A stretch of DNA of 64,000 bases from Planctomycetota bacterium (lineage in GTDB: Bacteria > Planctomycetota > GCA-002687715 > CAIWVZ01): contig JBGANV010000003.1 in NCBI GenBank assembly GCA_044222185.1, positions 608,001-672,000 of the forward strand, given 5' to 3'. Both the position numbers and the translations under genes were made by a program. Numbering within the stretch: position 1 is the first letter of the stretch; every line of letters starts with the position of its first letter. Under the pieces are notes generated by a model that was not told where the DNA came from, did no database searches, and worked only from the letters and a program-made list of their open reading frames with translations. Of this stretch, positions 33,416-49,639 are shown piece by piece.

Positions 33416-33453
33416 CCTGAGGGGGCCGCGGCGTGTGAACGCGCCTCGCAGTC

Positions 33454-33540
33454 CGCAGGCATCGCAGGCATCGCAGGCATCGCAGGCATCGCAGGCATCG
33501 CAGGCATCGCAGGCATCGCAGGCATCGCAGGCATCGCAGG
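33454..33540. repeat. 9-bp tandem repeat (CGCAGGCAT) x9 plus a partial unit
   Basis: Directly visible perfect repeat. Confidence 0.97.
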
Positions 33541-33893
33541 ACTTGCGAACGATCCTCGCGCTGGAACGAACGATTCTGCTGAAGAAACTCTTGGTCGGCA
33601 GCGCGAGGCGTCGTCAGCTGTGTCGACGCATGCGCGGACCCTCCGTTTGATTGGGGGTCTAGTGAGCGGGCAAGGCTCACCTGGCATACCGCGCAACGAA
33701 GCTCCGGCCCGTCATGCGCAGCCGCCGCAGCTTCTCGCAGCCAGCGCCAGAATCTTCTTTCACCAGTCGAACCGGACGACCGCTGCGGGGCCGCGCTCGT
33801 TCGCGACGGCGGAACGGTCCGAACCCGCCGAGATCGCCAGCCCCGATCGCGCGGCGAGGCCCCCGCCGCACGCCGCGAAGGTTAACGGCATTG

Positions 33894-34759
33894 CGTAGAG
33901 GGGGCGCCCAATTCCTGAATAAGGAAAAACCCCATGCAGCCTGCATATCGGGTTGTAATTGGCGCCCGCGTAGAGGGGGCGCCCAATCCAGACGAGGAAA
34001 AACCACATGTCAAATCCGTTCGGAGTTGTAATTGGCGCCCGCGTAGAGGGGGCGCCCAATCTGGGCTTCGTGATCTGGTGGATCAAAGGCCAAGTTGTAA
34101 TTGGCGCCCGCGTAGAGGGGGCGCCCAATCCACAAGGAGGTCCCGATATGTCGTCCCAGCTCGTTGTAATTGGCGCCCGCGTAGAGGGGGCGCCCAATGT
34201 TCTTTCTCTTTTTTGAGCACTCCAAGGAGGAGTGTTGTAATTGGCGCCCGCGTAGAGGGGGCGCCCAATAATAGGAGAATCACTTGGCTATTTACGTACC
34301 AAGTTGTAATTGGCGCCCGCGTAGAGGGGGCGCCCAATAAAGAAAGGTCCGACATGCGAGTTTATTGTTTGATCGTTGTAATTGGCGCCCGCGTAGAGGG
34401 GGCGCCCAATAAGGAGACCCGCAATGGGTATCAGTTTCGTCGCAGTTCGTTGTAATTGGCGCCCGCGTAGAGGGGGCGCCCAATCGCTCCACATCGGAGC
34501 CAATGAAACAAAGGAAGTTGTAATTGGCGCCCGCGTAGAGGGGGCGCCCAATTTCAGTTAAGGAAAGAAATAGCCATGGCATATAAGGTTGTAATTGGCG
34601 CCCGCGTAGAGGGGGCGCCCAATTTATGGAGATAGACGACCAAGAACTGCTTTCAGTTGTAATTGGCGCCCGCGTAGAGGGGGCGCCCAATTCGCAGCGG
34701 AGAAATCTCCGATGTTCAAGTTCGTTGTAATTGGCGCCCGCGTAGAGGGGGCGCCCAAT
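33894..34759 (-). CRISPR. CRISPR array: 12 full 36-bp repeats, 1 truncated repeat, 12 spacers of 32-39 bp
   Basis: Plus-strand repeat GTTGTAATTGGCGCCCGCGTAGAGGGGGCGCCCAAT at 33952, 34025, 34094, 34163, 34234, 34303, 34375, 34449, 34517, 34588, 34656, 34724; 19-bp remnant at 33894. Minus orientation is inferred from the repeat ending in ...ATTACAAC after a GC stem-loop and from co-orientation with the cas genes. Confidence 0.98.
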
Positions 34760-35027
34760 GGTCTCCTCGATCGGTTCGAGGAAATCGATGGCGTAACTTG
34801 CTTTGCCGAGGCGTGATAGGTCCCGGAACAGTCTATTCGGATTTCAAATACGGGACGGACCGCACCCTCGCGCACATTGTGCGTTTCCGGCCTGCGTTTG
34901 CCGAGGTCGAGCGCATGTCGCGCTCCCGGCGCTCGTCCGCACAGGCTGGGAGGTCGGATCCGGCGACGCCCCCGATGCCGGGAGACGTCGCGGACATGTG
35001 TCGACGAAGCATAGATCTGCGATCGGA
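34760..35027 (-). promoter_or_regulatory. Probable CRISPR leader
   Basis: Non-coding stretch between the cas2 stop and the first repeat, with AT-richer patches. Confidence 0.6.
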
Positions 35028-35303
35028 TCATTGCAACACCATCACCGCCGGCCAACGATCCGGCGGCTCTTGCCACGATAGGCGACGACGCCGGTCCCGT
35101 TCGTCAATCGGGAATAGCGCGAAGCGATCCTTCGCGGAAAGCCGCGATCCGACGTCGCGCTTGAACTTCGCCATGTCCTCCGGGTCGAGATTGACCTCGA
35201 ATACGGACTCCTGAACCCTGGCGCCGTACCGGAGAAGTACGCGTGCGAGCTTCGCGCGCCGACGGTTGTCGCTGACGTCGTAGGTTGCCACATAAAGGCT
35301 CAT
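35028..35303 (-). CDS. cas2: CRISPR-associated Cas2
   Basis: MSLYVATYDVSDNRRRAKLARVLLRYGARVQESVFE; 91 aa; overlaps the cas1 stop. Confidence 0.96.
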   Translation of the reverse strand: MSLYVATYDVSDNRRRAKLARVLLRYGARVQESVFEVNLDPEDMAKFKRDVGSRLSAKDRFALFPIDERDRRRRLSWQEPPDRWPAVMVLQ

Positions 35304-38173
35304 GGATGTTCGAACGTCCAGAAGACTGGCTCGCGGACGCAGAGGGCGCGGCGGATTGCCCGCGCCATGGCGGTCATGTGGTGCCGGTACGTCCGCGCTT
35401 CGACGCGTTCCTTCGCGCCACACACGATCGCGAACGTCGTCTGCACGTGGAGCATGAATCGCTGGATGGCATCCGGCTTCAGGTGCATGGGGAGTCCAAC
35501 GTCTTGGGTGGCCTGGAAGTCGCGGGGGCGGAGCTCGCGTGCCGCCGTCAGCACGACGCGATCCATCAGATGCCTGAAACACTCCTGGATGTCCGAGGCC
35601 AGGGCGGCGTGTCCGGCATGAGGTCGATGCAGAAGACCGATCGCCGGCGCCAGGCCTTCTTGCTGAAGGACGGCGACCAGCAGCTTGTGCAGCGAGGTTT
35701 GCGCCAAGTTTATCATCGCATTGACGGGATCGTGGGCCGCTGGCGCCTCCCGACGTCGGAACTTGAACCATGCGGGGAGCCGCGTGCCGAAGTCGCTCCA
35801 CCACGCGGCTGCGCCGGACCCTTCGAACCCGAGCAGTTCGTCCAGACTCAGTGCTCCGCTGCATTTTTCGGCCAAGGCCCTGAGTGAAGCCGGCAGGGAC
35901 TTCGAACTCCGGTCGGTCAGCGTGACTTCGGCCAGGCTGGCGCAGTTGCGAAGCTTCGACGCGACGAACAGCTTGGCGCATGCAAGCCGGAACTTCTCGT
36001 CGGCGGCCGTCGCAACCTGTGCGTCGAGGACTTCGGCATCCAAGTCAGTGTCGCGGCCCGTCAGGATCCCCCACGGCGTGCCGGCCGCGGATGAGATGTG
36101 CACGGGAATGTCGCGGGTCAGAAGTCGCGCGACCGCAGATGCTCCGAGAGTGGTCGTCCCCAGTACTACGACTTCGCGGATGCGATCGATCGGCGCGCCA
36201 ACGACGTCGCGCCCACCACGATAGGTACAGACGAGGCGCCCGTTCCGTACGCGCAGCATCGAGGCGCCGGGTCCCACGATCACGGTGGCGCCCTGCGAGA
36301 CCGGCGGTTGCCCAAGCTCGCCGGGAAGGGGCGCGAGATCGGCGGGTGGACCGAAGTCCGGTTTCGCCTCATGCCATCCGAGGTCGTCAATCAACGAAGG
36401 CGTTCCGGTCGGTGACGACCGCCATCTGTCTTTGCGTTCGAAGCGGTACCCAAGGAAAGTGAACGGTTCGACGAGATCGAGTTGCTCGGTCTTGTCTCCG
36501 TTCAACGCGAGTGAGAGGTGAGCCGCGGCTTCGGTCGCGTCGGCAAAAACGGCATCCGCTTCGGCGCGGTCCTTGTAGAGAACGAGGAAATCGTCCGCGT
36601 ATCGCACCAACACGTGAGAGTGATGGGCAATTTCCTCGTCGAATGCGTCAAGGAAGAGGTTGGCGAGCATGGGCGAGACCGGGGCACCCGTCGGCACGCC
36701 GCGATCCGGCGCCGGCGCCCCTATTCGCACCCACTTCATCAGAGCGTCGGTTAGGACCTCATCGGCCACGAAACAGCGGATCTTCGCTTCGAGTACGTCG
36801 TGGGGAATCGAGTCGAAGAAGCGGCGGAAGTCCGCGCGGAGCGCATGCCGGTACCCCCGCTGGTAGAGGACCTGGATGCGGGCCGCAGCTCGCGATCGAC
36901 TCAATCCCCGCCGGTATGCGAACGACGACTCCTCGAAGATGAGATCAAGTGCCGGAGCGAGCCGATCCACGACAAGTCGCTGAAGTGCGCGATCCAAGCG
37001 CGGCGGTATTGCGAGGGTCCGATCGGCCCCGCGCCCCTTCGGGATCTTCATGATGAAAGGCCGGCCGGGCTCGTACTCCCCTCGCGCGAGCGCCAGCGCG
37101 CTGACCTTGACGATCCCGCTTTGCAACTTGAACTCGCTAGCGACACGGTCGAGTCCTGCGGAACCCAGCGACAGGTTCAGGAGGCTTGTCGAGCGTGCGC
37201 ACCGCGTGTCATCGGGCCCCAACTCGGTGATTCTGTATGACCCGAATCCGAAACGGGTGACCTCGCCGACACGTACGTATTGTCCGCGAACGAGGGCGTC
37301 GGCCGCGTGCGGTCCGACGCCGCCGAATCGAATTCGTCCGACCGCTCCGCTGATCTTGTTGGGACCCTCAGTGAACTTGCGTCGACCCTTCGTGCTTGGC
37401 CAGGCGACGTCCAGCCACATCAGCCGGTTTTCGGCGACGAAGAGGCTCGCTGAAGCGCGGGGATCCGCCTCGGGATTGGCGTGCCGCATTCCCAACTCCC
37501 GGAGGCGGTCGAACAGACGCGTGCAGAACACGTCGGGTTCGAACCCGTCACCGTCGAAGTAGTAGTGGTAATCCGCGCGCGTCTTTTCGGTGCGGCGCCA
37601 TTTCAGTGGGGTCAAGAATTCCAGGGTCAGAGTGTCGGCGCCCCGGAGCCGCAGGATTTCGGCCTCGAGCCGGTTTTCAGAGATGGCCTGTGGTGCAGTG
37701 CCCGGTTCCAGCACCTCGCCGGCAACCAGGTCCCGCACCTCAATCACGTCGAAGTTGCCTCCGAGCTTGGGCTGGTCTGTGGGCTGATCAACGCCGAGTC
37801 GGCGGAGTCCCTTGACGAGGCGCCAGACGAGTTCCCCAGCATCCTTGGCGGTCTCACCGAGGTAGCTGAATCCGAATGCGTACTCCTCATCGGGACCGAT
37901 CACCAGGCGACATTGCTCCGGAGCGTCGACCATGATGCCTTCGGGGATCTCTGGCTTGGTTCCAGCGCTCGCCGCGTTCGAGTTCGCCAGCAACGCATAC
38001 ACAACGGGAAGGTGGTGGTAATGAAGCTCAACTCGGCGCGTGACGCGAATCAGGATGCGGATGCGGAAGACGAGCGTCCGGGGACGAGCGCTGCGAGGAG
38101 GGCGGGCATCCTTCTGGTCGGCCGGTCGGACTGCTTGGGTCGAGCCGGCCTGGCTTGGCCGATCAACGTTCAC
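35300..38173 (-). CDS. cas1: Cas6-reverse transcriptase-Cas1 fusion
   Basis: Cas6: LEFLTPL...SGAVG...VGEVTRFGFG G-loop. RT: IPKG, LAIP, SFAYRRG, ADFRRFFDSIPH, GVPTGAPVSPMLANL, YADD. Cas1: FEGSGAAAWW, DPVNAMIN, GLLH, ALASDIQECFR. GTG start at 38173 overlaps the upstream stop. Confidence 0.93.
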   Translation of the reverse strand: MNVDRPSQAGSTQAVRPADQKDARPPRSARPRTLVFRIRILIRVTRRVELHYHHLPVVYALLANSNAASAGTKPEIPEGIMVDAPEQCRLVIGPDEEYAFGFSYLGETAKDAGELVWRLVKGLRRLGVDQPTDQPKLGGNFDVIEVRDLVAGEVLEPGTAPQAISENRLEAEILRLRGADTLTLEFLTPLKWRRTEKTRADYHYYFDGDGFEPDVFCTRLFDRLRELGMRHANPEADPRASASLFVAENRLMWLDVAWPSTKGRRKFTEGPNKISGAVGRIRFGGVGPHAADALVRGQYVRVGEVTRFGFGSYRITELGPDDTRCARSTSLLNLSLGSAGLDRVASEFKLQSGIVKVSALALARGEYEPGRPFIMKIPKGRGADRTLAIPPRLDRALQRLVVDRLAPALDLIFEESSFAYRRGLSRSRAAARIQVLYQRGYRHALRADFRRFFDSIPHDVLEAKIRCFVADEVLTDALMKWVRIGAPAPDRGVPTGAPVSPMLANLFLDAFDEEIAHHSHVLVRYADDFLVLYKDRAEADAVFADATEAAAHLSLALNGDKTEQLDLVEPFTFLGYRFERKDRWRSSPTGTPSLIDDLGWHEAKPDFGPPADLAPLPGELGQPPVSQGATVIVGPGASMLRVRNGRLVCTYRGGRDVVGAPIDRIREVVVLGTTTLGASAVARLLTRDIPVHISSAAGTPWGILTGRDTDLDAEVLDAQVATAADEKFRLACAKLFVASKLRNCASLAEVTLTDRSSKSLPASLRALAEKCSGALSLDELLGFEGSGAAAWWSDFGTRLPAWFKFRRREAPAAHDPVNAMINLAQTSLHKLLVAVLQQEGLAPAIGLLHRPHAGHAALASDIQECFRHLMDRVVLTAARELRPRDFQATQDVGLPMHLKPDAIQRFMLHVQTTFAIVCGAKERVEARTYRHHMTAMARAIRRALCVREPVFWTFEHP

Positions 38174-40803
38174 TTCGGTCCTCTTCGTGGATCCTTTGGC
38201 AGTCGCGACCCGGGCTCCTGGATCTCCCTGACCGGGTCGGGGAGAAGGTGGCCGCCGCTCTTCCTGTTGCTGACGAACCACTGGTAGCGCTCGTGATCCG
38301 GCTTGTTCCCCACTGGATTGGGAGGGTAGTCCGGCTTGGGCTCAGAGCTGACGTCCGCGCACATGAACTTCAACTCGTCGAGCATGGTTTTCACCCACTT
38401 CTCCTTCGTCGCGGCGTCGCCGAGGTGGGAAAGGAAATCCCGAATCGAATCGCTCGCGGTCAAGTTTCGTCGGGCAGGATCGGTCAAGGTCCGGCAACGA
38501 TGGTCCTTGTTCTTGCTCGGTTCGCTCAAGTCATCCACGACCAAGTTGGTCACCGCGATCGTGGCGCAGCCGAGGCCGAGAGGTTTACCGCGTCCCAGGC
38601 CGTGCAACCCCGATGGCGACAGCTTCCCGTCTTCGTCGGGCTCAAGCTGCAGCGTAAGCGATGTCAAAAGCGCCCCAAGCTCGAGCTTGGTGAGGTTGTC
38701 GAAGTCGACGCGGAATGTGAATTGAAGGCCCGAAGGAAGCGGCGTGATGGTCTGGTTCTGCGGCCCTTTTTCCTCATGCCTGGAAACGCGATCGGGTCGA
38801 CGTGACTGGTGAGGTCCAGCCACGCGCCGGTACATCTTCCGTCCGCTGAGCGAGGCTTCCTCGACGCGATAGTGCGGAATCGTTGACGCCCGGGCGTCCT
38901 TGAGTATTGGCGGCCATCGTGTTTCTTTCGCCGTCTCGTACGCAGGTGGCCCGACGGGCCTGAGATAGAACGCCGTCGTGGTCGGTCGCGGCGCGCCAAG
39001 GATCGGCAGAGTCCGCCACGCGATGTGACCGTCAGCCTTTGCCCAATTCGTGCTTCCGCTCGCATTCAGCATTCCGTGACTGAACCGCAGGTGGCCGGCA
39101 CTCGCTTGGCGAGACTTGTCTGAGTCCCCTTCCTGTTTCACCCATCCGAAAACGCGACAGGCCGGACACTGCCTGTCGATCGACCTGCACGGGTGCATTT
39201 CCTTACAGAGCAACTCGCCTCGTGTATTCGGGTAGGCCAGTCGGGGAAGTGCCACTGGGTAGAGACCGACAACTTTGTCACCGCGTAGCAAGGCGTAGAA
39301 CACGCTTCCCCTCTTGGGGAGAGATGGGCCGCTATCCCTACCATCCAAGAAATCGCTCGGGTAAGGAGCGTCAGGCGACGGGCTGAGGACACGAGGTGTC
39401 GGAGGGAGTGACTCGTCATATAGCGCGCGACGATGTCGATCGAAATAGCGGGTGAGTGAGCTTTTCAGGAGTTTGACGACCTCGGCATTTGCGTCGAGCC
39501 TCACCCGTGGTCTGATTGCCGTGACCGATTCAAACCAGAAGCTCTTGAGCCGCTCGTCGAAGTTCTTAAGCGAATCGGGCGCGTTGAACGGTGCCGACGC
39601 ATCGAAGAAGAGGCGCTCGTCGTGCTTCTTTTCAATGTTCGGGCCGGTCCGGTGGAGGTAGCCGAAGACGATCCACTCGTCCGCGTTGCACAGCGGTGGA
39701 GTGATGCTCTGATCACTGTCGGGCAGTGGCATGACTGCGTGTGCCCGTCGGTAGCAATACCGAAGCTTGCCGTCCGCGCCATATCTTCTGTCCGCTGTCC
39801 GTTTGATCGTCGCGACAACCGGCGCACCGTCCGGGATCGTTGGCACGTGCGCGACGATTCCCGTTGCGCTCCCGTTGTGTGCCTGGTGCTTGTGGCCGAC
39901 GCGAACTGCCCCGGCGTAGGCTGGCACGAACGCCGCTCGCAACGTCTGAGGATCATCGCCTTGCGCGCGCCCATCCAACTGTTCAAGGACGATCGAGCCA
40001 TCGTTTATGACGTCCACGACTCGCACGGGGACGTAACTCGGCCTATCGGCACTCTGCGCGCCCCCCCCCCGATGCGCTGGGTCAAAGCCAACCCGGATGT
40101 CCAGCCCGCCGTCATCGAACTGGGAGAAGCATGAGGCCGTGAGCGTCTCGAAAATCGACCGGACCATCCCGCGCAGCGAGGAGGCCGGGACGGCCGGCGT
40201 GGTGCGATCGCGGACGATGTCGTCGAGCGCCCCCGGCCTCCACTCAGGAACGTCATCGAGGGTGAACCACCCGGCGGACTTGTGGCCGTTCGCGCCTTTG
40301 TTCGCCTTCCGGGCGTCGGGGATGAACCACTCGCTCCGCGTCGTGAGGCGGCACTCGACGAAGCCGGTGAGGCGATCGGCGTGAAACCGGTCGTGGCTGG
40401 CTGGCGCGGAGCGCCCAAACAACTCGTCCGTCGCAAGTTGCCCGAGCCCCTCTCGAGGAACGCCGACGAAGTTGTACGCGTGGATGAAGCGGGTCGCGTC
40501 GGGCAACGGAGTCAGCGTCCGAATTGGTCGAGAATCCGCCGGGATTGACGACGGTTCGGCCTCTGCCGGATCAGCCAATCGCTGAACAGCGACCAACGTC
40601 GGTTCGCCGCCTTCGACGTCCACGGTGAACATCGCTTCGAGCATTGGTGGCACTTGGGCGATGAGGTGCGTCGGCACGCAGACCTCCCATTCGTCCGCGT
40701 TGCTCGGAACAGACGTCTGCCCCGCCATCTGCTCGATCACGATTCGGATCGAGCCTCGACCTTGACTGATCCGCTTCACTTTCCCACGAAACGGTTGAGT
40801 CAT
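38170..40803 (-). CDS. cas7: Type III-D Cas7 with large insertion (TIGR03986-like RAMP)
   Basis: HAYNFV, GFVECRLTT, PASSLRGMVRS, long insertion, CPACRVFG, GRKMY, GLGRGKPLGLG. Confidence 0.88.
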   Translation of the reverse strand: MTQPFRGKVKRISQGRGSIRIVIEQMAGQTSVPSNADEWEVCVPTHLIAQVPPMLEAMFTVDVEGGEPTLVAVQRLADPAEAEPSSIPADSRPIRTLTPLPDATRFIHAYNFVGVPREGLGQLATDELFGRSAPASHDRFHADRLTGFVECRLTTRSEWFIPDARKANKGANGHKSAGWFTLDDVPEWRPGALDDIVRDRTTPAVPASSLRGMVRSIFETLTASCFSQFDDGGLDIRVGFDPAHRGGGAQSADRPSYVPVRVVDVINDGSIVLEQLDGRAQGDDPQTLRAAFVPAYAGAVRVGHKHQAHNGSATGIVAHVPTIPDGAPVVATIKRTADRRYGADGKLRYCYRRAHAVMPLPDSDQSITPPLCNADEWIVFGYLHRTGPNIEKKHDERLFFDASAPFNAPDSLKNFDERLKSFWFESVTAIRPRVRLDANAEVVKLLKSSLTRYFDRHRRALYDESLPPTPRVLSPSPDAPYPSDFLDGRDSGPSLPKRGSVFYALLRGDKVVGLYPVALPRLAYPNTRGELLCKEMHPCRSIDRQCPACRVFGWVKQEGDSDKSRQASAGHLRFSHGMLNASGSTNWAKADGHIAWRTLPILGAPRPTTTAFYLRPVGPPAYETAKETRWPPILKDARASTIPHYRVEEASLSGRKMYRRVAGPHQSRRPDRVSRHEEKGPQNQTITPLPSGLQFTFRVDFDNLTKLELGALLTSLTLQLEPDEDGKLSPSGLHGLGRGKPLGLGCATIAVTNLVVDDLSEPSKNKDHRCRTLTDPARRNLTASDSIRDFLSHLGDAATKEKWVKTMLDELKFMCADVSSEPKPDYPPNPVGNKPDHERYQWFVSNRKSGGHLLPDPVREIQEPGSRLPKDPRRGPK

Positions 40804-41276
40804 GATCCACCTTCCTCGACTCCACGCCTCCCTGCCCGGTTCAGTGTGACCCATCGGACCAACGCACCACCGTCAGCCGGATGAACCCGGACGGTCAACG
40901 TGGCCGCGCCCTCGCAACCAGCGCGTTTCGTCGCCCACTCCTTTGCGATCGAGATGTGCTGCACTTCGCCATCGCTCAGGCTGATTGCCGGGACGGAGGA
41001 TTGCGACCCGTCAACGCCGATGACCCGCACGAGCCAGGCGTCTGACGTGTCCTCAAACGATCGGCGACGGGCGAAGACCTCGACATCCGGCCCGAAGGCG
41101 CGAACCAACCAGAGACTCTCCAATGACGCGAGACCTGGGTCGGCCAAGGCGAGGAACCCGGACGACAGCGGGCCTTCGATAAAGGCATCCGTGCACGCCG
41201 TTCTCACGGACGTCAGCACCGCAACAAGGGCGGTATCGTGCATGCGTGCGGCCCAACATGATCTCGTGGCGCTCAT
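40800..41276 (-). CDS. csx19: Csx19-like type III-D subunit
   Basis: About 158 aa, between cas7-cas7 and cas7-insertion with 4-bp overlaps on both sides; LWLVRAFGPDVEVFARR. Call rests mostly on position. Confidence 0.65.
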   Translation of the reverse strand: MSATRSCWAARMHDTALVAVLTSVRTACTDAFIEGPLSSGFLALADPGLASLESLWLVRAFGPDVEVFARRRSFEDTSDAWLVRVIGVDGSQSSVPAISLSDGEVQHISIAKEWATKRAGCEGAATLTVRVHPADGGALVRWVTLNRAGRRGVEEGGS

Positions 41277-42793
41277 CGGCGTTCTCCACTGTTCGTTGAA
41301 CCCGCAACGCTCGGACTGGTTGGGCGTTGAATCAACTGCCACAACGCGTCGACGAAAGGTTGGCACTGATTCAAGGATCGAGCGGGTGGCTCCGCATCAG
41401 TCCGTGATCCATCCGGCACGCCGCGCACCACACAAGGCGTCACGTCGAACACCCCGTTCCCACGCGATGATGCGGCGCCAAACGCAACGCGCTTGTCCAT
41501 GAGATCCCGGGCGAAGAGCGCGAGCAACCCGAACGCAGGCTCGGTGACGTCGTTGTCGCTACCGCGCGACGCAGCGACCTCGATGCGCACCTTGAAGTGC
41601 TGCCCCATCGCGAGTCTCGCGTTGAACTTCTTGCCGTCGGCAGCGCCGCCAGTGAAACGATCGATGGCAACGTAATCGATCGGGATTGCCCTCGAACGAG
41701 GCCCATCCAGCCGCGTCACGCATACCCGCACGCACGACGCGTAGTTCTCGTTCCCGAATACCCGGCAAGCGAAACACAGTTCCGCAGGCTGGGCATCTGG
41801 CAGCGTACGGCTGCACGCTCCGGCGCCCGTCGGGTCGCATGCCGCACTCTCGTTCAGCGTGCGTAGGATTCGTTCACAGTGAGATCGCAGCACGCCGCGG
41901 AAGCTGGTACCGGGCAGCTCTGGCCGATCCCCTCCCCGTGGGGCGGAGTCGTATCCGGTGCGCACCGATTCGGTCGGATCGTTGACAAGCAACGTCGTCT
42001 GATCGGTCGACTTGAGGGCGAACTCAATCGACGGCCACCGCGACGGTTGTTGCTCGTGGAACTCAACAGCTTGCGTCTCGGTCCACGCCGTGTCGGAGTC
42101 ATCTCCATGCAGGCACGCGGCGATCAGTGCATTTGCGTTGCGCGAGTTCCTCGCGCGCACGGTAATCAGCGTGGCTTCCACTCGCCCAAGCCCCTGCGCT
42201 GTTCGCGCGCCGATTCCGACTCCTCCTCTACCGATCTCGGCAAGCGCCTTCTTCAGCGTGTCTATTTCTTCAGCCGTCAGGTCTCTTCCTTCGACCACGA
42301 TCAGGAAACGGGCACCGGGAGCGACCTCCTCGTGACTGAACAAGCGATGGTCGGCGGCACTCCGTCGAGTCCGGTCGATCGACACGTTGTCGACCACACG
42401 AACCGACGGTTGTTCGATCTGGGCGTCGTGGAACGTGAGCTTCGAGCAGCGTGCTACGGCACGATTCGTGGCCGCGTTCGCGTCCCGCGTCACGGGACGC
42501 ACGTTCCCGAAGAGCTCGCAGCACTTGCACTGACAAGGCTCGGCGCTGCCTGGCGATGCACTACCGCCCGTTGCCAATACACACTTCGCCGTCGTGCCCG
42601 TCATGCTCTCCACCACGCCACGGAGAACGCCCGCCAAAGAACTCCCAGGAATCACGCACGTCCCGTCCAGTCGACGTCGAAACGCAATGTCGGAGGACTG
42701 CGATCCGCGCCCGTTGCTCGTGAGCAACGGCGTCGTCGTCGTGCACTCCATCTTGAAGCGGTGTTCGGTGATTCCGGTCGCCGACTCGGTCAT
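41273..42793 (-). CDS. cas7: Cas7-Cas7 fusion (two RAMP domains)
   Basis: IPGSSLAGVLR...CELFG...VSIDR...IGARTAQGLG and LPGTSFRGVLR...CRVFG...VAIDRFTGG...FGAASSRGNG. Confidence 0.9.
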   Translation of the reverse strand: MTESATGITEHRFKMECTTTTPLLTSNGRGSQSSDIAFRRRLDGTCVIPGSSLAGVLRGVVESMTGTTAKCVLATGGSASPGSAEPCQCKCCELFGNVRPVTRDANAATNRAVARCSKLTFHDAQIEQPSVRVVDNVSIDRTRRSAADHRLFSHEEVAPGARFLIVVEGRDLTAEEIDTLKKALAEIGRGGVGIGARTAQGLGRVEATLITVRARNSRNANALIAACLHGDDSDTAWTETQAVEFHEQQPSRWPSIEFALKSTDQTTLLVNDPTESVRTGYDSAPRGGDRPELPGTSFRGVLRSHCERILRTLNESAACDPTGAGACSRTLPDAQPAELCFACRVFGNENYASCVRVCVTRLDGPRSRAIPIDYVAIDRFTGGAADGKKFNARLAMGQHFKVRIEVAASRGSDNDVTEPAFGLLALFARDLMDKRVAFGAASSRGNGVFDVTPCVVRGVPDGSRTDAEPPARSLNQCQPFVDALWQLIQRPTSPSVAGSTNSGERR

Positions 42794-45120
42794 GACTTGT
42801 CTCCTCGAGCGAGATCAGATGCGGTCGCACGGAGACGTTCAGCGGCTTCCGCGTCCCCGCAGTTCCACCCTGAAATGGAGGCGAGCAGTTTGTCCAGCGG
42901 CCGTTGACGGTCCGCGCGTGGTTCTTTTCGGCCTTCGAGTGCCTCCGTGACGGTTTTGCGCCACGTCGCTCCCCGTTGCGCCGCCAGCAACAGAAGCCGC
43001 GCGAGTCCGCTCCGCTCCGAGGCAGTCATCTCATCAGTGAATGACTCGCCATCAGCCGTGGGATCACAACTCGCGCTGCGCGACGACACCTCCGCACATG
43101 CGGTGAACGCAGCACCCGGGATGAGCGTCGCAAAGCGAGGAGACGCTAACTGGCCATGACTGACGGCCTCCTGGCCGAGCAGATTCACGACGATGCGTCC
43201 GAAACCTTCGCCGCGACGGAATCCGATGCCGCGCTCTTCGGCTGTGACGAGTAACTTCGCAACGGCAGCCCTATCGGCATCCGGACTCAAGCGGAACTCG
43301 AACATTGAACCTGCAACAATCGCCACGTCGTCGGTGCGTGGAACGCGCGGGACGCCATTGAAGCCACTGATGGTGCGCGGCGAGCTGAAAGCTGAGTTAA
43401 TTGAGAACTGCGCGGGGCCCTTGCCGCCGATCAAACTCCAGAACTCGTCGGCGCTCAGTGTGGTGAGCGGTCGCAGCATGTCGTCGCATGCGATGAGATC
43501 GCTGTAGAGCGTTACGGTGAACGATTCCCCCTTGAGATCATCGGTCGTGATCGCTCGCGAAACGAGGCCCGGGTAGGGTGAGTCCGACGCGCTCGCAGCC
43601 TCGCTCGAAGGAGCAACCGCTGCATGCGACAGGAGCGTCAGTCGAAGCCCGCCGTGACCTCGCGAGATCGCGCGGCCCACGTGCGCCTCGAAGGACGTGC
43701 CTAACTGCATCTCGATGAAATCGACGAGTTGGGCTGGCCCGTGCATATGGCCTGCGAACCACGTCCCACGTTCGATCACCTCTGTTGCATAAAGCTCGCC
43801 GTCCTTGCCGCGTTGGGTATCGGAGTCGATGGCGGTGCGTTGGATGATTCGCATCGACGGAGTGCACGCGCTGATCTCCTGACCTCCGAAGGTCCCGTTG
43901 AGTAGAGACGCAAATCCTGAAAGCGGTTGGAGCGTCTCGCCACAAAGACACGGTACCTGTGTCTCGCGCTCGCCTGGCGCGTCCGAGACGTCAGGCGCCC
44001 ACCCGCACGTGTCGTGGCCGGTCCGGAGATCTGTCACGCCGTGAGGCACATTGACCGCCCCGGGGTTCCGCCCGACACCGGGGTACAGCTTGCATGTGTG
44101 AAGATGCTGCGGCATCGGGAACGGCGCGGACTGCTCGACCTCGGGATGCGAAAGCGGGTAGAGGGGCCCAAACACGACGGCTTCGCGTGCGAAGACGGAC
44201 TCGAACTCAGATCCTGCGTCCGTGCCAACTCCCTTCGCGAGGAGTCGGGCGGCGATCGCGCCGCGCACGGATGTTCCCGGCACGTACGCAAGGCTATGAA
44301 CAACGTGTCCGGCCTCGGGTGAGCCGGCGACGGCGAGATTGGACACTGCGAACGCGACAACCACGCGGGACGTCCAGGCTGCGGGCGTCGCTGCCGCTGT
44401 ACCCGCCTGGGACGCCGCCTCGGGTACGGTTCGGCTGCGCGCGTCGTTGGCATCGCTGGTCGTTTCCGGTACGTCTCCCGGCTGCTGCAGCACCGCGCTC
44501 AGTGCACGCTCGAACTCGCCGTGGCGGACCACTATCGGCGTGCCGTTGGGTGCAGGCACCTGAAGGCCCTTGAATGGGCCCTCCACAACCCTGACGGTCA
44601 CCTTTGCCTGTCCCTTGCCGCGGCGGCGTTGCCCTCCGATCGCGCGGATGCGCCGCAGCGCAAGGATCAGCAGCGCGACCGCAACGTCCGAAAGAGGCTG
44701 ACGCGAGGTAAGCCGACATCGGAATTGTCCGGTCTCCGCGTCCTCGAAATGGAACAGGTGCCCCTTGAGCGCCCGGCCGGTGATCCGGTCGCGGCTGCTC
44801 CGCCCGGTGATCTGCGTGGTCCGCTTCGCCGGGACGCTTGCACGGATTGAACGAGCGTCGCGGAAGATGACGGCGCCGCTGCGGTCTCCGTTTCGCCCGC
44901 GGCTTCCGAAGATCTGCGTCACACGCGGATCAGCGTCGCCCTTCTCTGGGAACAACTCGGCCGCGGCAGCCCGTGCGAGGCCCTTGATCGTACTCGCCGG
45001 GATGACGGCAAGGCCGTCCTCGTCCTTGACGATCCCGGCATCGATTGTTCGGCCGACGCCGAATCCTGATCCGATGTGAAACTCCGCTTCCATCGTGATC
45101 GTCACTTCGAGATCGAGCAT
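42790..45120 (-). CDS. Cas7-Cas5(Csx10)-Cas11-like fusion
   Basis: HIGSG...IPASTIKG...IGGQRRRGKG (Cas7); YVPGTSVRGA...RTAID...GIGFRRGEGFG (Cas5/Csx10); short helical C-terminus (Cas11-like, weakest part of the call). Confidence 0.8.
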   Translation of the reverse strand: MLDLEVTITMEAEFHIGSGFGVGRTIDAGIVKDEDGLAVIPASTIKGLARAAAAELFPEKGDADPRVTQIFGSRGRNGDRSGAVIFRDARSIRASVPAKRTTQITGRSSRDRITGRALKGHLFHFEDAETGQFRCRLTSRQPLSDVAVALLILALRRIRAIGGQRRRGKGQAKVTVRVVEGPFKGLQVPAPNGTPIVVRHGEFERALSAVLQQPGDVPETTSDANDARSRTVPEAASQAGTAAATPAAWTSRVVVAFAVSNLAVAGSPEAGHVVHSLAYVPGTSVRGAIAARLLAKGVGTDAGSEFESVFAREAVVFGPLYPLSHPEVEQSAPFPMPQHLHTCKLYPGVGRNPGAVNVPHGVTDLRTGHDTCGWAPDVSDAPGERETQVPCLCGETLQPLSGFASLLNGTFGGQEISACTPSMRIIQRTAIDSDTQRGKDGELYATEVIERGTWFAGHMHGPAQLVDFIEMQLGTSFEAHVGRAISRGHGGLRLTLLSHAAVAPSSEAASASDSPYPGLVSRAITTDDLKGESFTVTLYSDLIACDDMLRPLTTLSADEFWSLIGGKGPAQFSINSAFSSPRTISGFNGVPRVPRTDDVAIVAGSMFEFRLSPDADRAAVAKLLVTAEERGIGFRRGEGFGRIVVNLLGQEAVSHGQLASPRFATLIPGAAFTACAEVSSRSASCDPTADGESFTDEMTASERSGLARLLLLAAQRGATWRKTVTEALEGRKEPRADRQRPLDKLLASISGWNCGDAEAAERLRATASDLARGDKS

Positions 45121-45122
45121 CT

Positions 45123-46727
45123 TCAGACTCCCCAGAGGCGCTGCCCATCGCACAGGTCAGGTATGGCGGTCCACTTGGCCGATGGGACCTCGTCCGTCCA
45201 AGGGACGGCAGACGACGACGGCTCAGTCGGTGCGGACGGATCGCCGAGTGCTTTGAGGGCCGCGACCCACTGCGACTCCGCTGCAGCGAACCGTCTCAGC
45301 CGTGCACGCCACGCGGCATACGTTCTGTCCAATGTCGGCAGCAACGCCGAGAACGGGATCGCTAAGCCGGCTTCCGCTTCGATCCGCGCGACACTTCCCC
45401 ATTCGCGTGTCTCGTGCAACTTGCTCGCCGGAAAAGAGGCACCGAGTTCGCGACACGCGTCTCGGAATGCCCCGAGGCTCCGTGGCCCGGTGCCCTCTGC
45501 CTTGAATGGACGCCCCGTCAGGCGAATGGCATTGCGACCGTGCACCTTCTGCCGATCGCCAAGTACGACGCTCGCTTCAACGCCCGATTCGCTCACGATC
45601 GCGTAGTCGGCGGCACCGACGTTCCATTCGAGCCGCTTTCGCGTTGCCTTGGCCTCGCGGAGCAGGCGCGTCGCGAAGTCATACGCGATCCGGAACGGGA
45701 AATGGGGCCCGACGATCGCGATCCCGGAGGAGATCGTGAGTCCTTCGAGCGGGCTGCCGGGCTTGGAGTGCTTCGCCACGAACTCCTTTGTGAGTTCATG
45801 CACGAACGGGAGGCCGATCGAGCCTCGCGTCACGATGACGAGGTCGTCACCGGCGCAATAGATCGTTTCGGCTGGGAATTTCGCGAGATGCTTCGGCGGG
45901 TCCTCGCTGGAGAGTTTGTCGATGAGTTGTTTGACGACAGTTTCGACCGCGGACACGGCGCTGGCCTGAATTGCCGCCTGTAGGAGCTTCGAGAATTCCG
46001 ACACCTTGTCGAGGGGGGTGGCCGCGAGTTTCCTTCCTGCCCCGTCGACATCGGCGACGACGACTGCAAGCCCGAGCGGGTCATCGCCGGCGATCTCATC
46101 GAAGTCCTTGGCGCGGCGGACGTCCTCGTTCCAATCGATGGTGGCCGAGTTTCCCGCGGAAGCTTCTGGCGGCGCGAACACAACGCGCGTCCGACCGCTT
46201 CCCTTTTTCTCGCACAACGGTCCAAGCACCCGTTCAGCCGTCACTATTCCAGTCGGCGTCTTCACTGTCACGACTTCAAGGCCACAGCCGTCGCATCGCA
46301 TGGCCGTCGGGAAGTGCTGGCTGCCGACGTCGACCTGCCGTGCGCGGCGGAAGCGTTGCAATTCCTCGACCGCGGCCTCGCGGGCGCGCTCCGCACCGTT
46401 TGGGTCGGCAGCGACGATGCCGCTCACGACCAGCTTGTCCTCTCCGAGGTGCTTGGTTGCCTCGTGCCGAACGGTCGACACGAACTTCGCCGCGGTCGCC
46501 TCCAACTGGAACCCAAACAGTCCGGCGCCACCGGCGGCAAACACGACAAGGGCGTCTGTTCCAGCGTCGGCTGCGCATTTGCGCAGGATTCCGTCCGGAT
46601 CCTTGTCGAGCCCTTCGAGAAGCTGACTCGCTCCCGCAACCTCGCGCAGCTTGGTCGAACCAAGCAGGTACGCCTTGATGTGGTCGACATCAGTCGCGAC
46701 GAAGAACTTGGAGTTCGCCGGATTCAT
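45123..46727 (-). CDS. cas10: Cas10, short form without HD domain; palm motif AGDD
   Basis: DVDHIKAYLLGSTKLREVAGAS, AAGG, CDGC, ADVDGAG, IYCAGDDLV, TISSGI, AK; 534 aa. Confidence 0.9.
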   Translation of the reverse strand: MNPANSKFFVATDVDHIKAYLLGSTKLREVAGASQLLEGLDKDPDGILRKCAADAGTDALVVFAAGGAGLFGFQLEATAAKFVSTVRHEATKHLGEDKLVVSGIVAADPNGAERAREAAVEELQRFRRARQVDVGSQHFPTAMRCDGCGLEVVTVKTPTGIVTAERVLGPLCEKKGSGRTRVVFAPPEASAGNSATIDWNEDVRRAKDFDEIAGDDPLGLAVVVADVDGAGRKLAATPLDKVSEFSKLLQAAIQASAVSAVETVVKQLIDKLSSEDPPKHLAKFPAETIYCAGDDLVIVTRGSIGLPFVHELTKEFVAKHSKPGSPLEGLTISSGIAIVGPHFPFRIAYDFATRLLREAKATRKRLEWNVGAADYAIVSESGVEASVVLGDRQKVHGRNAIRLTGRPFKAEGTGPRSLGAFRDACRELGASFPASKLHETREWGSVARIEAEAGLAIPFSALLPTLDRTYAAWRARLRRFAAAESQWVAALKALGDPSAPTEPSSSAVPWTDEVPSAKWTAIPDLCDGQRLWGV

Positions 46728-48493
46728 GAGTGTCCACTCGCATCGAGGGTCAGGCGGAGTTGGTCCGGGAGACTGTCCATCGTCTTGAAATAGGGGTCAC
46801 GCTCTTTCCGTGAGAATCCGTTCGTCGTTTCCCACGCAAGGCCATCATCCGGCCACGGCGCCGGGGTCGCGACGCGGCGAGTGGCGACGAGGAGCGCATC
46901 GAGTGCGATTTTTGTCGCGGTTCGCGCGTCCGGAAGCGAGTCTCGATCGTCCGCCGACAACGACCCGCGCATGTGCACGATCTGATGACGAAACTGAACC
47001 CAGTCAGCCCTCGCGTTGATTTTCTTGAGTGGATTACAGTAGGCAACGAGCCCAGGCTTCAGCACGACCTTCAGGCTGATTGAACGGCGCCCGCTCCCAT
47101 GATCAAAGGTAAGGACCTGGTTAGGCTCGATAATCAGCGCCGACGGCTCCGTTGTCACATCGAAGCTCACGCGGCGTGGCGCTCCGTAAATGAGCTTGAT
47201 ACGCTCCGGAGTGTTCGCACCCAGACCGACCGCGAGCGCGGCGTCCAGTGTCTTACTGACAAGGCTTTGCTCGCCTTGCGTGTAAGGTGCCGATCCTTGC
47301 TCTTTCGGGGTAAGGCTTTGGACCTCGATTCCATCCTTGGCTGCGACCACCAAAAGCGCGCTGACCGCGAGTTCGAGAAACGCGGACCGACCAACGATCT
47401 CTTCATCGAAGCGATCGGTATCCTCGAGGCTCTTGAGGCGCCACCAGTCGTCGACCAGGAACTCCGTGACCGCTTCCGTATTCTTCACGAGGCTGTTCAT
47501 CCTCTCGCTTAGTTGGAGCGTCTTTGAATTCTGCGCCCAGTTCTTCAGTGAGGTATGACAGTCCGGCAGGTCGGAATAACGCTGCTCGGCGAACGCGCGA
47601 CAGTGGCCAATACTGGCCTGGGCGAGAGCGATTGCCGTCTTGTCGGCTTTCTCGAAGTAGTCGGCCAGTTTGCCATTCGATTGATCCACGAGCTCAGTGA
47701 CGAGCACCTCAGCCGCCGCGAAGTCGCGGCGCTCTACTGCGTTGCAGATGCGCTGCCGAGACTGCAACGACAGCGCCGCCTCCGGCATCACCTGCTCCCG
47801 GTAGCTGCACGTCCACGGCTTTGGGCGACGAAGCTTGGAATCGTACTCGCCGAAATCCAGGTAGTAGGACGGTATCCCGTAGTACATCGCGAACATCGAC
47901 GCGGCGCCGTGCATGGGCTTCTGGCCCCCTGTCACATCGATGGCGAGCGAACGAACGTCCGTCAGCTCGCGGGCCCACTTGAGTAGCCGGAGGAAGATCA
48001 ACGCCTGATCCGCGCCGTCTTTCACTTCAACTTGGTCGACGATGTTCGGCATTTTGAACACAGTCGAAAGCGCCGTCTCAACCGCCCGAAGCATCGTTCT
48101 CACACGTGAACATGCATCAGTCCACGACGGCCGTGTCCCGAACGGCACGACCTCAAGCGTCCCGCCGCTCTGCATGGCATGGACGGCGATCGAGAGCGCG
48201 AGCTGTTCTTCGCTGAAGCCGGTGCAGAGCACGAGTCGCCGCGGGACCGTGTGCTCCACCGTGCTCCGCCTGGAGTCCGTCCCGGCCGTCGTCGCGTATT
48301 CGATCGGCTTGCCCTGTTTCAGTCGGTCAGCGAGGACTGCTGCGGTGGCCGGAATGTGCTTCCCGCGTAGACCCTCCCACCGCTTTTGCGCCTCGTCAGG
48401 TAACAGCGAATTGCAGAATGCGTCCTTCCAGCACTTCTGAATCGCCTTCGCATCCTCATCGCCCATGCTCGCTCCACCTGTTTGCGACGCCAT
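46724..48493 (-). CDS. CARF-HEPN ancillary ribonuclease (Csm6/Csx1-like)
   Basis: LVLCTGFS and IDVTGGQKPM...SYYLD CARF motifs; C-terminal RHQIVH (RxxxxH); overlaps the cas10 start. Start uncertain (48493 or 48466). Confidence 0.8.
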   Translation of the reverse strand: MASQTGGASMGDEDAKAIQKCWKDAFCNSLLPDEAQKRWEGLRGKHIPATAAVLADRLKQGKPIEYATTAGTDSRRSTVEHTVPRRLVLCTGFSEEQLALSIAVHAMQSGGTLEVVPFGTRPSWTDACSRVRTMLRAVETALSTVFKMPNIVDQVEVKDGADQALIFLRLLKWARELTDVRSLAIDVTGGQKPMHGAASMFAMYYGIPSYYLDFGEYDSKLRRPKPWTCSYREQVMPEAALSLQSRQRICNAVERRDFAAAEVLVTELVDQSNGKLADYFEKADKTAIALAQASIGHCRAFAEQRYSDLPDCHTSLKNWAQNSKTLQLSERMNSLVKNTEAVTEFLVDDWWRLKSLEDTDRFDEEIVGRSAFLELAVSALLVVAAKDGIEVQSLTPKEQGSAPYTQGEQSLVSKTLDAALAVGLGANTPERIKLIYGAPRRVSFDVTTEPSALIIEPNQVLTFDHGSGRRSISLKVVLKPGLVAYCNPLKKINARADWVQFRHQIVHMRGSLSADDRDSLPDARTATKIALDALLVATRRVATPAPWPDDGLAWETTNGFSRKERDPYFKTMDSLPDQLRLTLDASGHS

Positions 48494-48637
48494 CTCGACC
48501 TCCTCCGCTGTCCGGCTCCAACCGCCACAGGGTTCGTATCCCCAGCGATAGTTCAGCCATGGATTCACCCGCGCCAACCGACTCCCCCTGCGGGCGACAT
48601 CGCCGCGGAGCTTAGGGTGGCCGGCCCGACCTGTCAA

Positions 48638-49639
48638 TCAGGGCGTCGCTCGGGTCACCTTCGGCACGTTCACCGCCACCTGGCCGATTTGCGTGGCTTG
48701 GATCGGAACGAGGAGGTCGACCACGAGAGGCAACGACTTCTCGACGACGGTCGGTGTGAGAATGAGGTTCACGATTTCGGCAGAGTCCTCGGCGTGAGCG
48801 CGGGCGAGGCCCCGGAGTTCGTTGGCAACGGAGCGAATGACGCGGGCACGGGCCGCGTGTCGATCGAACAACGCTGTGAAGTGCAAGATGCTGCTTTCCA
48901 ACGACTCCAGGCGAGCGCGATAGAGCTGATGGCGCGCCGGACTCTCCTCGCGATGGAGCGCCTTGGCGTCAGCCTCATGACGTTCGCGAAGCTGTGCGAG
49001 AACGACGCGGGCTCCGAGTTCTGCACTGCGATCGAACGCGACCGCGGCCCGCTCGAGACGAGTTGCGATTTCGTCGTGCAGCAGGCGGAGTCGTTGCTGA
49101 ACATCGTTCGCCACGATCCGCCGTTCGCGGAGCGCGCCTCCAAGTTGGGGGCCAAGGACCTTCAACGAACTGATCGAGGTTCCGACGGCTGCGGGCCAGA
49201 GATCCAATCGCTCCGCGCGGTCGACGATCGGTGACGCGCGCGCTTCGGAGGCATCGATAGGAGGGAGATCGAGGGCGAGCCATGAGGCGACCGCCGCTTC
49301 ATCGAGGGCCTTGACGATGTCGTCCTGCGGTGGCGGCGCGAGGACAGGAGCTGCCTTTGGCGCGGTCGGCAGGATGCCGCGCTGGCTGCCGCGTGCTGGA
49401 GGCGCCATACGGACGCCGCCCTGGGACTGCCCTCCGAGGGTGAGAACAACCCCCGACCGACCGTCGCCGCGAAGATTCGTGTCGATCAGGAACCCCTCCG
49501 GCGTCGACCGGAACGCTGGTGGGAGTGATGACGCCTGACGAGCGATGCCACCGCGCGAAACGTGATCCGCGACCGCGATGCAGCAAAGCGAGAAGACCAA
49601 CGGGAGGCATGTCGCAGCCCGAAACGCATTTTGAGTCAT
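48638..49639 (-). CDS. Hypothetical secreted coiled-coil protein
   Basis: Hydrophobic N-terminus CLPLVFSLCCIAVA and a long helical C-half; no family recognised; start uncertain. Confidence 0.5.
   Translation of the reverse strand: MTQNAFRAATCLPLVFSLCCIAVADHVSRGGIARQASSLPPAFRSTPEGFLIDTNLRGDGRSGVVLTLGGQSQGGVRMAPPARGSQRGILPTAPKAAPVLAPPPQDDIVKALDEAAVASWLALDLPPIDASEARASPIVDRAERLDLWPAAVGTSISSLKVLGPQLGGALRERRIVANDVQQRLRLLHDEIATRLERAAVAFDRSAELGARVVLAQLRERHEADAKALHREESPARHQLYRARLESLESSILHFTALFDRHAARARVIRSVANELRGLARAHAEDSAEIVNLILTPTVVEKSLPLVVDLLVPIQATQIGQVAVNVPKVTRATP

Follow-up and report, generated by a model that had tools for sequence, protein, structure and literature searches.

Why should nearly every spacer of a natural CRISPR array resemble the place at which a ribosome begins to translate a messenger RNA, and how could such an array have come about? 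The question is raised by an array at positions 33877 to 34759 of a 64,000-nt stretch of a Planctomycetota bacterium genome (assembly GCA_044222185.1, contig JBGANV010000003.1, positions 608,001 to 672,000), the whole of which is referred to here as the window. The array is assigned to the minus strand and consists of 13 repeats of 36 nt, 12 of them identical and one degenerate, with 12 unique spacers of 32–39 nt. It has the ordinary features of a CRISPR array, namely near-identical direct repeats within the 23–50 nt range, unique spacers of similar length and adjoining cas genes, and it was the single array detected by an array scan of the whole 7.08-Mb, 67% GC genome. When read on the plus strand, 8 of its 12 spacers contain a Shine-Dalgarno (SD) sequence followed within 3–12 nt by ATG, and none does so on the reverse complement. 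The pattern is genuine, has very strong statistical backing and stands alone when compared with 391 control spacers. Literature searches found no description of an array with comparable initiation-site bias, in agreement with the initial annotation of this locus, which knew of none with so strong a bias. The explanation we favour, tentatively and at a little less than an even chance, is that translation-initiation regions were strongly preferred when the spacers were captured from RNA.

Translation-initiation-like signals in the array

The spacers are numbered from the oldest, S1, to the newest, S12, which adjoins the leader; all belong to the minus-strand array, and their letters are given here as they read on the plus strand. 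Eight of them contain both an SD and an ATG. S1 (33913–33951) has TGA/TAA, AAGGA, 8 nt, an ATG at 33934 and five open codons, and S2 (33988–34024) has GAGGA, 8 nt and an ATG at 34007. The strongest SD of the array, at -11.6 kcal/mol, is the AAGGAGGT of S4 (34130–34162), which stands 6 nt before the ATG at 34148. AAAGG, 6 nt, an ATG at 34354 and six open codons are found in S7 (34339–34374), whereas S8 (34411–34448) has AAGGAG as its first letters, followed by 7 nt, an ATG at 34424 and seven open codons. In S9 (34485–34516), a GGAG is separated by only 3 nt from an ATGA at 34503, and the upstream frame is open by eye until the overlapping TGA. S10 (34553–34587) has TAA, AAGGA, 11 nt and an ATG at 34576, and S12 (34692–34723) has GGAG, 9 nt and an ATG at 34712. 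A ninth spacer, S6 (34270–34302), has TAG, AGGAG, 6 nt, a TTG at 34284 and five open codons. Two further spacers show partial sites: S5 (34199–34233) is T-rich and then carries AAGGAGGAGT at its very end, such that the start codon would fall beyond the spacer, and S11 (34624–34655) starts with TTATG (34626) followed by nine open codons, with no upstream SD inside the spacer. Only S3 (34061–34093) is devoid of an SD with a start; by eye it can be read as 11 in-frame codons, nine of which end in G or C, and it is probably a piece of a gene interior. All nine start positions given in the initial annotation, the TTG of S6 included, were confirmed in this way, as were its remarks on the end of S5, the beginning of S11 and the exceptional S3. 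Its figure of 11 initiation regions among 12 spacers is reached on a lenient count (eight with SD and ATG, S6 with SD and TTG, and the partial S5 and S11), while the strict count is 8 of 12.

The strict count is largely indifferent to how a site is defined. A motif rule (AAGG, AGGA, GGAG, GAGG or AGGT, then 3–12 nt, then ATG) selects 8/12 spacers on the plus strand and 0/12 on the reverse complement. Narrowing the spacing to 3–10 nt leaves 7/12 with ATG only, or 8/12 if ATG, GTG and TTG are all admitted, again with none in reverse. An energy rule, requiring a duplex of -5 kcal/mol or lower with the 16S tail read from the host's own genome and ending 3–10 nt before ATG, likewise gives 8/12 against 0/12. 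The geometry of the nine full sites is also regular: the SD-to-start spacing is 6–9 nt in seven of them (by eye), the A of the start codon is preceded by a median of 18 nt (13–23) and lies a median of 18 nt (12–25) from the spacer end, and the SD lies 0–11 nt from the spacer 5' edge. None of the 10 starts is followed by an in-frame stop over a total of 50 codons (p = 0.09 by shuffling), a weak sign, at the level of sequence, that they belong to real genes. Stops occur only just before an SD, in S1, S6, S9 and S10, and no spacer carries a stop alone (0/12, by eye); the stops of S1, S6 and S10 and the ATGA overlap of S9 look like typical operon gene junctions. S1 and S2 are identical at 11 of the 12 nt before their ATGs (AGGAAAAACC.C) and at 2 of the 9 nt after them (p = 0.0008 by shuffling), so they presumably derive from two different genes that share an initiation cassette and come from one kind of source element. 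Finally, counting nucleotides from the start codon to the spacer end that faces the leader gives a multiple of three in 7 of 10 cases, and these seven in-phase spacers read the repeat in one common frame (VVIGARVEGAPN); this phasing was noticed post hoc, and its p of 0.02 as a single test becomes about 0.12 after allowing for six.

The meaning of these sites depends upon the strand from which the CRISPR RNAs (crRNAs) are made. The leftmost repeat (33877–33912, minus strand) departs from the consensus at 16 of 36 letters, matching it only in the 20 that adjoin S1, and a degenerate repeat is the usual mark of the trailer end of an array. The leader (34760–35027, minus strand), which occupies the 268 nt between cas2 and the first repeat, is on the opposite side, and the cas operon points toward the array, ending 268 nt to its right. 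As minus-strand RNA, the repeat forms a GC hairpin of 7 bp with a 9-nt tail behind it that ends in AUUACAAC, as is usual for Cas6 substrates that leave an 8-nt tag, whereas as plus-strand RNA only 4 nt follow the hairpin. In five related loci (L031, L033, L051, L053 and L054), the array similarly lies downstream of RT-cas1/cas2 and is read in the same direction. Taken together, these four sequence features indicate that the minus strand is the source of the crRNAs, so that the plus strand of the spacers has the sense of the target RNA. The minus-strand transcription put forward in the initial annotation is therefore borne out by the degenerate left repeat, the upstream minus-strand cas genes and the hairpin with its 9-nt tail ending ATTACAAC, and it follows from this reading that the crRNAs would be antisense to sequences resembling translation-initiation regions. 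A sigma-70 scan found no sigma-70-like promoter in the leader, two 'terminators' predicted in the scan are repeat/spacer artefacts, and Rfam gave no match within 33500–35300. A coding role of the plus strand was also considered and rejected: a 173-aa open reading frame (ORF) opening at the ATG of S1 (33934–34455) runs through seven repeat-spacer units, but the repeat has no stop in two of its three frames, and long ORFs that cross the array are therefore artefacts.

Several controls were used to judge how often such sites occur by chance. Letter shuffles of the spacers (5000 and 1000) yielded a mean of 0.48–0.52 sites per 12 spacers and a maximum of 4. An SD with a start is present in 2.8% of random host 35-mers and in 6.9% of host 35-mers of no more than 0.46 GC, so that the composition-matched scoring proposed in the initial annotation came out in favour of its claim, at 8/12 against 6–7%. 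Among the control spacers, 24 of 391 have an SD with ATG, or 27 of 391 with the Tistrella arrays turned round (against 8/12, Fisher p is about 3e-7 to 6e-7 for these totals and between 3e-7 and 2e-6 for the control comparisons described below), and no control array with at least five spacers exceeds 2 of 5. Chance as a cause was rejected on the basis of the shuffles, the host 35-mers and the control spacers alike. The controls include, from the same phylum, six loci whose Cas6-RT-Cas1 or reverse transcriptase (RT)-Cas1 homologues are of 28–44% identity, in which the motif rule finds 3/75 spacers in sense and 3/75 in reverse and the energy rule 3 and 5 of 75. They also include 15 arrays beside RT-Cas1 genes on six plasmids (one of Tistrella, two of Gloeothece, two of Nostoc and one of Anabaena), with 14/173 in sense and 10/173 in reverse, or 17 and 7 with Tistrella flipped; both totals are given since the hairpin and 8-nt tail of the Tistrella repeat suggest the plus strand. 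The sixth same-phylum locus, L052, was oriented by the same downstream-of-RT-cas1/cas2 rule as the other five, and the array of one homologue (G008) ends at a contig edge. On the Synechocystis plasmid pSYSA, an SD with ATG is found in sense in 2/49 spacers of the I-D array, 3/56 of the III-Dv array (CRISPR2, with 2/56 antisense) and 2/38 of the III-Bv array. Two of these control loci have peculiarities of their own. L052 (G182:C7, 9115–11518) is a distant Cas6-RT-Cas1 relative with two large arrays that share one repeat between them, of 21 and 13 repeats, about 100 nt apart, with smaller repeat clusters nearby and a repeat orientation that is ambiguous by sequence. The Tistrella mobilis pTM1 locus, L065, has two small arrays (7214–7521 and 11110–11691) with initiation-like spacers in both orientations (n = 12), and its RT-Cas1 is accompanied by TIGR03986-type RAMP genes.

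Source of the spacers and the adjoining cas operon

The spacers are not host sequences. A blastn-short search of the host assembly (7.08 Mb, 93.8% complete) found no protospacer, the best hit having 17 identical letters, and the best full-length matches in the host had 19–24 of 32–39 letters, which is the chance level. Self-targeting or host regulation was rejected as there is no spacer match in the host beyond chance. The whole array had no match at E <= 10 among 50,697 GenBank phage records and only two 81% matches of about 40 nt, at a repeat/spacer edge and with E = 10, among 72,556 PLSDB plasmids. Degenerate patterns for S8, S1, S4, S11, S7, S5, S10 and S2 each gave zero matches in IMG/VR viral contigs, and a comparison of the array with 400 other genomes of the phylum gave only three matches of 23–26 nt (E = 0.003–0.008 per genome), which are regarded as chance. 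The searches of host and phage suggested in the initial annotation were thus carried out without locating a protospacer, and the mapping of spacers to real gene starts that they were intended to provide was not obtained. With respect to composition, the spacers average 46% GC and 23 of 50 codons end in G or C (46% GC at third codon positions, GC3), compared with 64% GC at -20 to +15 and 77% GC3 in codons 2–9 for a crude set of 3451 host starts. GTG is absent from the ten spacer starts and accounts for 38% of the crude host starts. The source accordingly looks, by its sequence, foreign and lower in GC than the host, although spacer GC is a confounded guide to the source because an AT-preferring capture would itself lower the apparent GC. 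Much the same applies to the earlier suggestion that the guides address whatever stretch of an mRNA is easiest to reach when the host is GC-rich: it is doubtful for spacers of 46% GC and 46% GC3, an estimate which AT-preferring capture would bias.

The cas operon lies to the right of the array and entirely on the minus strand, with the array downstream of the effector genes, Csx1, Cas6-RT-Cas1 and Cas2. Nearest to the leader, cas2 (35028–35330) is recognizable as a Cas2 domain in the last ~100 codons of an ORF at 35028–35981. It adjoins a Cas6-RT-Cas1 fusion (35300–38281) of 993 aa, the homologues of which align from about residue 57. Pfam identifies CRISPR_Cas6 (220–349), RVT_1 (413–614) and Cas_Cas1 (674–947) within this single polypeptide, so that with Cas2 beside it the three domains make up a Cas6-RT-Cas1 adaptation module. 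The YADD of the RT and the acidic/His motifs of Cas1 are intact as judged from the letters. Next come a Cas7-insertion subunit of the TIGR03986 family (38170–40854), whose best solved relative is 8s9t_E, and a 188-aa ORF (40800–41366) at the csx19 position. The latter is close in size to Synechocystis csx19 (186 aa), but it had no match in Pfam, NCBIfam, PADLOC or PDB, and no similarity to Csx19 could be detected. Farther along are a Cas7-2x with two RAMP domains (41273–42793) and a Cas7-Cas5 (Csx10) fusion (42790–45153), the counterpart of Cas7-Cas5-Cas11. A short Cas10 of 534 aa without an HD domain (45123–46727) has a palm-2 AGDD that aligns with the GGDD of 8s9t_C, and it is adjoined by a gene for a Csx1/Csm6-like CARF-HEPN protein (46724–48637, a 637-aa ORF). 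A 349-aa ORF without a family match (48638–49687) stands at the head of the operon.

The effector set and its order are III-Dv-like, with four of the five components recognized through NCBIfam, PADLOC and chains A, C, D and E of PDB 8s9t. The obvious point of reference is the III-Dv system of Synechocystis sp. PCC 6803 (pSYSA CRISPR2; 8S9T), with which our operon shares gene order and similar sizes, from an HD-less Cas10 through Cas7-Cas5(-Cas11), Cas7-2x and a gene of about 187 aa to Cas7-insertion, as well as a Csx1-type partner. The catalytic Cas7 aspartates of the Synechocystis complex are D26, D33 and D246 (PMC11026444). In pairwise BLASTP of low identity, each of the three is aligned with Asp, D26 in the Cas7-Cas5 fusion and D33 and D246 in Cas7-2x. 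The differences are that Synechocystis has a separate Cas6, an RT-less Cas1, a GGDD where we find AGDD, and 56 spacers without initiation-site bias, and that protein identity is low, about 22% for Cas7-2x. A related III-D2 complex has been described to make SAM-AMP and not cyclic oligoadenylate (PMC13294483). Based upon these sequence comparisons, we propose that a working CRISPR-Cas system of III-Dv-like type is encoded here, with a Cas6-RT-Cas1 and Cas2 adaptation module, which is an ordinary, if little-studied, combination. A binding-only occlusion of ribosome-binding sites does not agree with this gene content, as the catalytic aspartates are kept and a CARF-HEPN partner is encoded, and the translation-level silencing by occlusion raised in the initial annotation is not favoured for the same reason.

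A proposed capture bias and its rivals

According to the favoured explanation, the twelve spacers would have been copied from the RNA of foreign elements, and the capture step of this Cas6-RT-Cas1/Cas2 module would prefer the SD, the start codon and the first codons of genes, often at gene junctions. The fragments would be inserted mostly in the orientation that gives antisense crRNAs, and type III interference, which needs antisense guides, would then remove the other orientations. The bias would thus arise at capture rather than by later selection, and the preference itself may come from a single strand that is open and purine/AU-rich, from RNA ends or from the cover given by initiating ribosomes. 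Support for this scenario comes from the initiation sites themselves (8/12 strict and 11/12 lenient, all in target sense and none in reverse), from the enzyme, with Cas6, RT and Cas1 domains in a single ORF, their motifs present and Cas2 adjoining, and from the four newest spacers, S12 to S9, which already show the pattern. S1 and S2 would represent one kind of site captured on two occasions from different genes, which is what a hot spot of capture predicts. An effector type alone does not produce such a bias, because the III-Dv array of Synechocystis, served by an RT-less Cas1, is unbiased. There is precedent as well. In E. coli without an effector, the RT-Cas1-Cas2 of Fusicatenibacter saccharivorans ('Record-seq') takes up AT-rich spacers, mostly beside start and stop codons and preferentially antisense (PMC10828431, PMC6821258), and the RT-Cas1 of Vibrio vulnificus (type III-D) shows an antisense preference without an effector (PMC6821258). 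The bias of RT-Cas1 toward AT-rich transcript ends cited in the initial annotation agrees with these reports. Because such biases are reported for RT-Cas1 enzymes without an effector, orientation and gene-boundary bias can arise at capture, and by analogy a gene-boundary bias at that level, with orientation and with differences between enzymes, is an already known kind of behaviour. Our array would be a natural case in which the start/stop-proximal and antisense bias reported for the F. saccharivorans RT-Cas1-Cas2 is carried to an extreme.

The likeness to F. saccharivorans lies in the RT-Cas1 adaptation module and in start-proximal, antisense spacers, here 8–11 of 12 by sequence features with 8 in sense and 0 in reverse. 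There, the bias is a statistical enrichment under over-expression in E. coli, whereas ours is seen in a natural array of 12 spacers. Stop-proximal spacers and an explanation by AT-richness are the two features of F. saccharivorans that do not carry over. A 2026 modelling paper attributes its hot spots mainly to local AT-richness (PMC13501316). Pure AT-richness was tried as a cause here and rejected, since the AT-richest 35-mer of each host ORF (n = 5496; host genes stand in for the true spacer source) carries an SD with ATG in only 8–12% of cases, compared with the observed 67% (p = 1.4e-5). Because the AT-richness model yields 8–12% only, an extra factor is needed, and this need is itself a point against the explanation we favour. 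Several others must be added to it. The F. saccharivorans bias includes stop-proximal regions, which have no counterpart among our spacers, and an enrichment of about 10- to 20-fold or more is far above the RT-Cas1 biases described in the parts of those reports at hand. The 248 spacers of the 21 RT-Cas1-linked control arrays show no bias (17 sense and 13 antisense, or 20 and 10 if Tistrella is flipped), although these controls are distant, since even the closest available homologues among them are 35–44% identical and their effector content differs. As no protospacer was found, no 'start' is verified on a real gene, and the data consist of only twelve spacers in a single genome. The lack of bias in other arrays does fit the fact that RT-Cas1 systems differ among themselves in positional and orientation biases (PMC10828431, PMC6821258). 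Thus, Marinomonas mediterranea and V. vulnificus resemble our case in having type III-linked RT-Cas1 fusions and in taking up spacers from RNA. They differ from it in that spacers reportedly come from anywhere in coding sequences, with no start or stop bias (same two papers). Outside the RT-Cas1 group, new spacers of the Streptococcus thermophilus III-A system are enriched near gene beginnings on the coding strand (PMC8860593). That system differs in having no RT, its proposed substrate is structured single-stranded DNA at stalled transcription (PMC8860593), and its peak, as described there, is modest and lies 10–50 nt downstream of the start codon, whereas our sites are centred on the SD and start.

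The main rival of capture bias is selection at the stage of interference, under which capture would be unbiased and only guides against initiation regions would protect well and persist; we consider it unlikely, if far from negligible. In a concrete form, an anti-SD seed would pair first with an mRNA segment that is always single-stranded, in competition with the ribosome. The III-Dv-like gene set and order of the effector speak for such a possibility, given that the exposed seed of the Synechocystis III-Dv complex is crRNA nt 32–37 including the 8-nt tag, equivalent to spacer nt 24–29, and that mismatches in this seed largely prevent binding (PMC11026444). In our array, the strongest anti-SD-complementary 6-mer overlaps spacer nt 24–29 by at least 3 nt in 7 of 12 spacers, one of the seven being S11, whose GGAG is not the SD of its own ATG. 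Windows 24–29 and 25–30 were the best of all those tried (p = 0.01, uniform placement), and every scored site is in the functional antisense orientation. However, spacers that are merely centred on start codons give the same register, the overlap was examined after the data had been seen, and S3, S5, S8 and S9 have no SD in the seed window. Furthermore, the III-Dv array of Synechocystis does not show the pattern (3/56 with SD and ATG in sense, and an SD-like sequence in the seed window of 6/56 in either orientation), nor is there a clear bias among the 12 spacers of the Tistrella plasmid locus with its TIGR03986 RAMP and RT-Cas1. Selection also requires that non-initiation guides be nearly useless, and yet the cleavage residues together with Csx1 should respond to any transcript match. 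A more specific form of capture, which we hold to be distinctly improbable, is that pieces of about 35 nt under initiating or just-started ribosomes were inserted by RT-Cas1/Cas2 during infection, perhaps after Csx1 had shredded the exposed RNA. It is suggested by medians of 18 nt both ahead of the start A and from it to the spacer end, by an SD lying 0–11 nt from the 5' edge, by leader-proximal ends that are in frame in 7/10 spacers, as the edge of a stepping ribosome would give, and by the CARF-HEPN RNase gene in the operon. In size and shape, the spacers are like the initiation fragments that ribosomes reportedly protect in the classical case of RNA phage R17. On the other hand, the phasing is post hoc (p = 0.02, about 0.12 corrected), the 3' edge is ill-defined, ranging from +12 to +25, S3 and S5 are at odds with the model, and such capture has no experimental precedent, while other RT-Cas1 arrays, some with CARF partners, are unbiased. 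Somewhat broader, and improbable in its own right, is the idea that each unit of the system's memory is a place where ribosomes land, for which two versions are conceivable. Either the enzyme would insert mRNA protected by initiating ribosomes, and the array would be a natural record of foreign translation starts, or the 3' crRNA seed of the III-Dv complex would mimic the anti-Shine-Dalgarno tail of 16S RNA, dock on invader mRNA and compete with the ribosome. The SD/ATG register, the 7/10 phasing and the 7/12 seed overlap are compatible with both versions.

The remaining alternatives concern the kind of RNA captured, the kind of invader or the purpose of the array. There is a slim chance that the bias reflects RNA phages or replicons so tightly folded that their ribosome-binding sites are almost the sole open or ribosome-covered stretches. 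RT-linked type III arrays have earlier been matched to RNA viruses (bioRxiv 10.1101/2022.02.15.480533), and the composition of our spacers (46% GC and 23/50 GC3, in a 67% GC host), the lack of GTG among 10 starts compared with 38% of crude host starts, the absence of a DNA match in the collections searched and the presence of the organism in bioreactor and activated-sludge runs all point the same way. Nevertheless, the composition argument is confounded by AT-preferring capture, small RNA phages have only 3–4 genes and eleven sites would need several of them, S3 looks GC-rich, and the GenBank phage collection gave no match. Capture of mRNA 5' ends, in which each spacer would be the first ~35 nt of a transcript, for example by integration of run-off cDNA ends, has in our estimation a slighter chance still. 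It would account for leaders of 13–23 nt in nine spacers, for the near-leaderless S11 and for longer leaders ending at the SD in S5 and possibly S3, and a skew toward transcript ends has been reported for F. saccharivorans. Against it, S9 has the ATGA overlap, the stops before the SDs of S1, S6 and S10 look by eye like internal operon junctions, and there is no sign of spacers derived from 3' ends. In addition, bacterial transcripts mostly begin with A or G, and by eye a purine comes first in only 4/12 spacers. Very remote, finally, is a domesticated array that would block the ribosome-binding sites of genes of the host or a resident element and serve no immune role. An SD with a start is indeed the target expected of a translational repressor, but no spacer matches the 93.8% complete assembly beyond 19–24 of 32–39 letters, the catalytic aspartates and the Csx1 gene are conserved and present, and the spacers are diverse and foreign in composition.

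Significance, occurrence and surroundings of the locus

The few RT-Cas1 enzymes that have been studied differ among themselves, and natural spacers rarely match anything. The array described here offers a sharp and testable phenotype for the choice of RT-Cas1 substrate. If the bias arises at capture, the enzyme would record translation starts and not transcripts at large, a property from which RNA-recording tools could benefit. Should it stem from selection, the III-Dv complex would work best on ribosome-binding sites, which would link CRISPR targeting to competition with the ribosome. Either cause would guide the search for the invaders, possibly RNA phages of wastewater bacteria.

When examining where else the locus occurs, the repeat was not found in any other array among 23 genomes of the order, which here equals the whole class, with up to three mismatches allowed; metagenome contigs and genome contigs each gave one single-copy match, neither of them with an array. 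A comparison with further arrays of this repeat or clade, as the initial annotation had recommended, was therefore realized only for arrays beside other RT-Cas1 genes, where the bias is absent, and none with this repeat came to light. The locus itself is present in public bioreactor and activated-sludge DNA runs, with small shares in four DNA runs and no RNA run listed for it. Contigs of the first run have both array flanks, those of the second the leader side and those of the third the cas2 side, and the S4 unit was recovered on 99-nt contigs in the third and fourth, with runs from two studies represented. The four runs contained no new spacers.

The genome has two more RT-like matches (G000 C1:32222–32920 and C10:94265–94987), with 33–35% identity to the RT part of the fusion and without Cas1, which are probably RTs of group II introns or other retroelements. 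Within the window, GC is about 0.68 to the left of the array and about 0.63 to the right (34000–64000), which places the CRISPR locus at the edge of a lower-GC block. Immediately to the left of the array, at 33436–33558, overlapping long ORFs contain a 9-nt unit (CGCAGGCAT) repeated in tandem about 12 times. Beyond the cas operon, the lower-GC block contains five long plus-strand ORFs (49742–57250) that have no Pfam match, and these are followed by a ClpB-like AAA ATPase (57151–59034) and a 1077-aa TPR protein (59230–62463).

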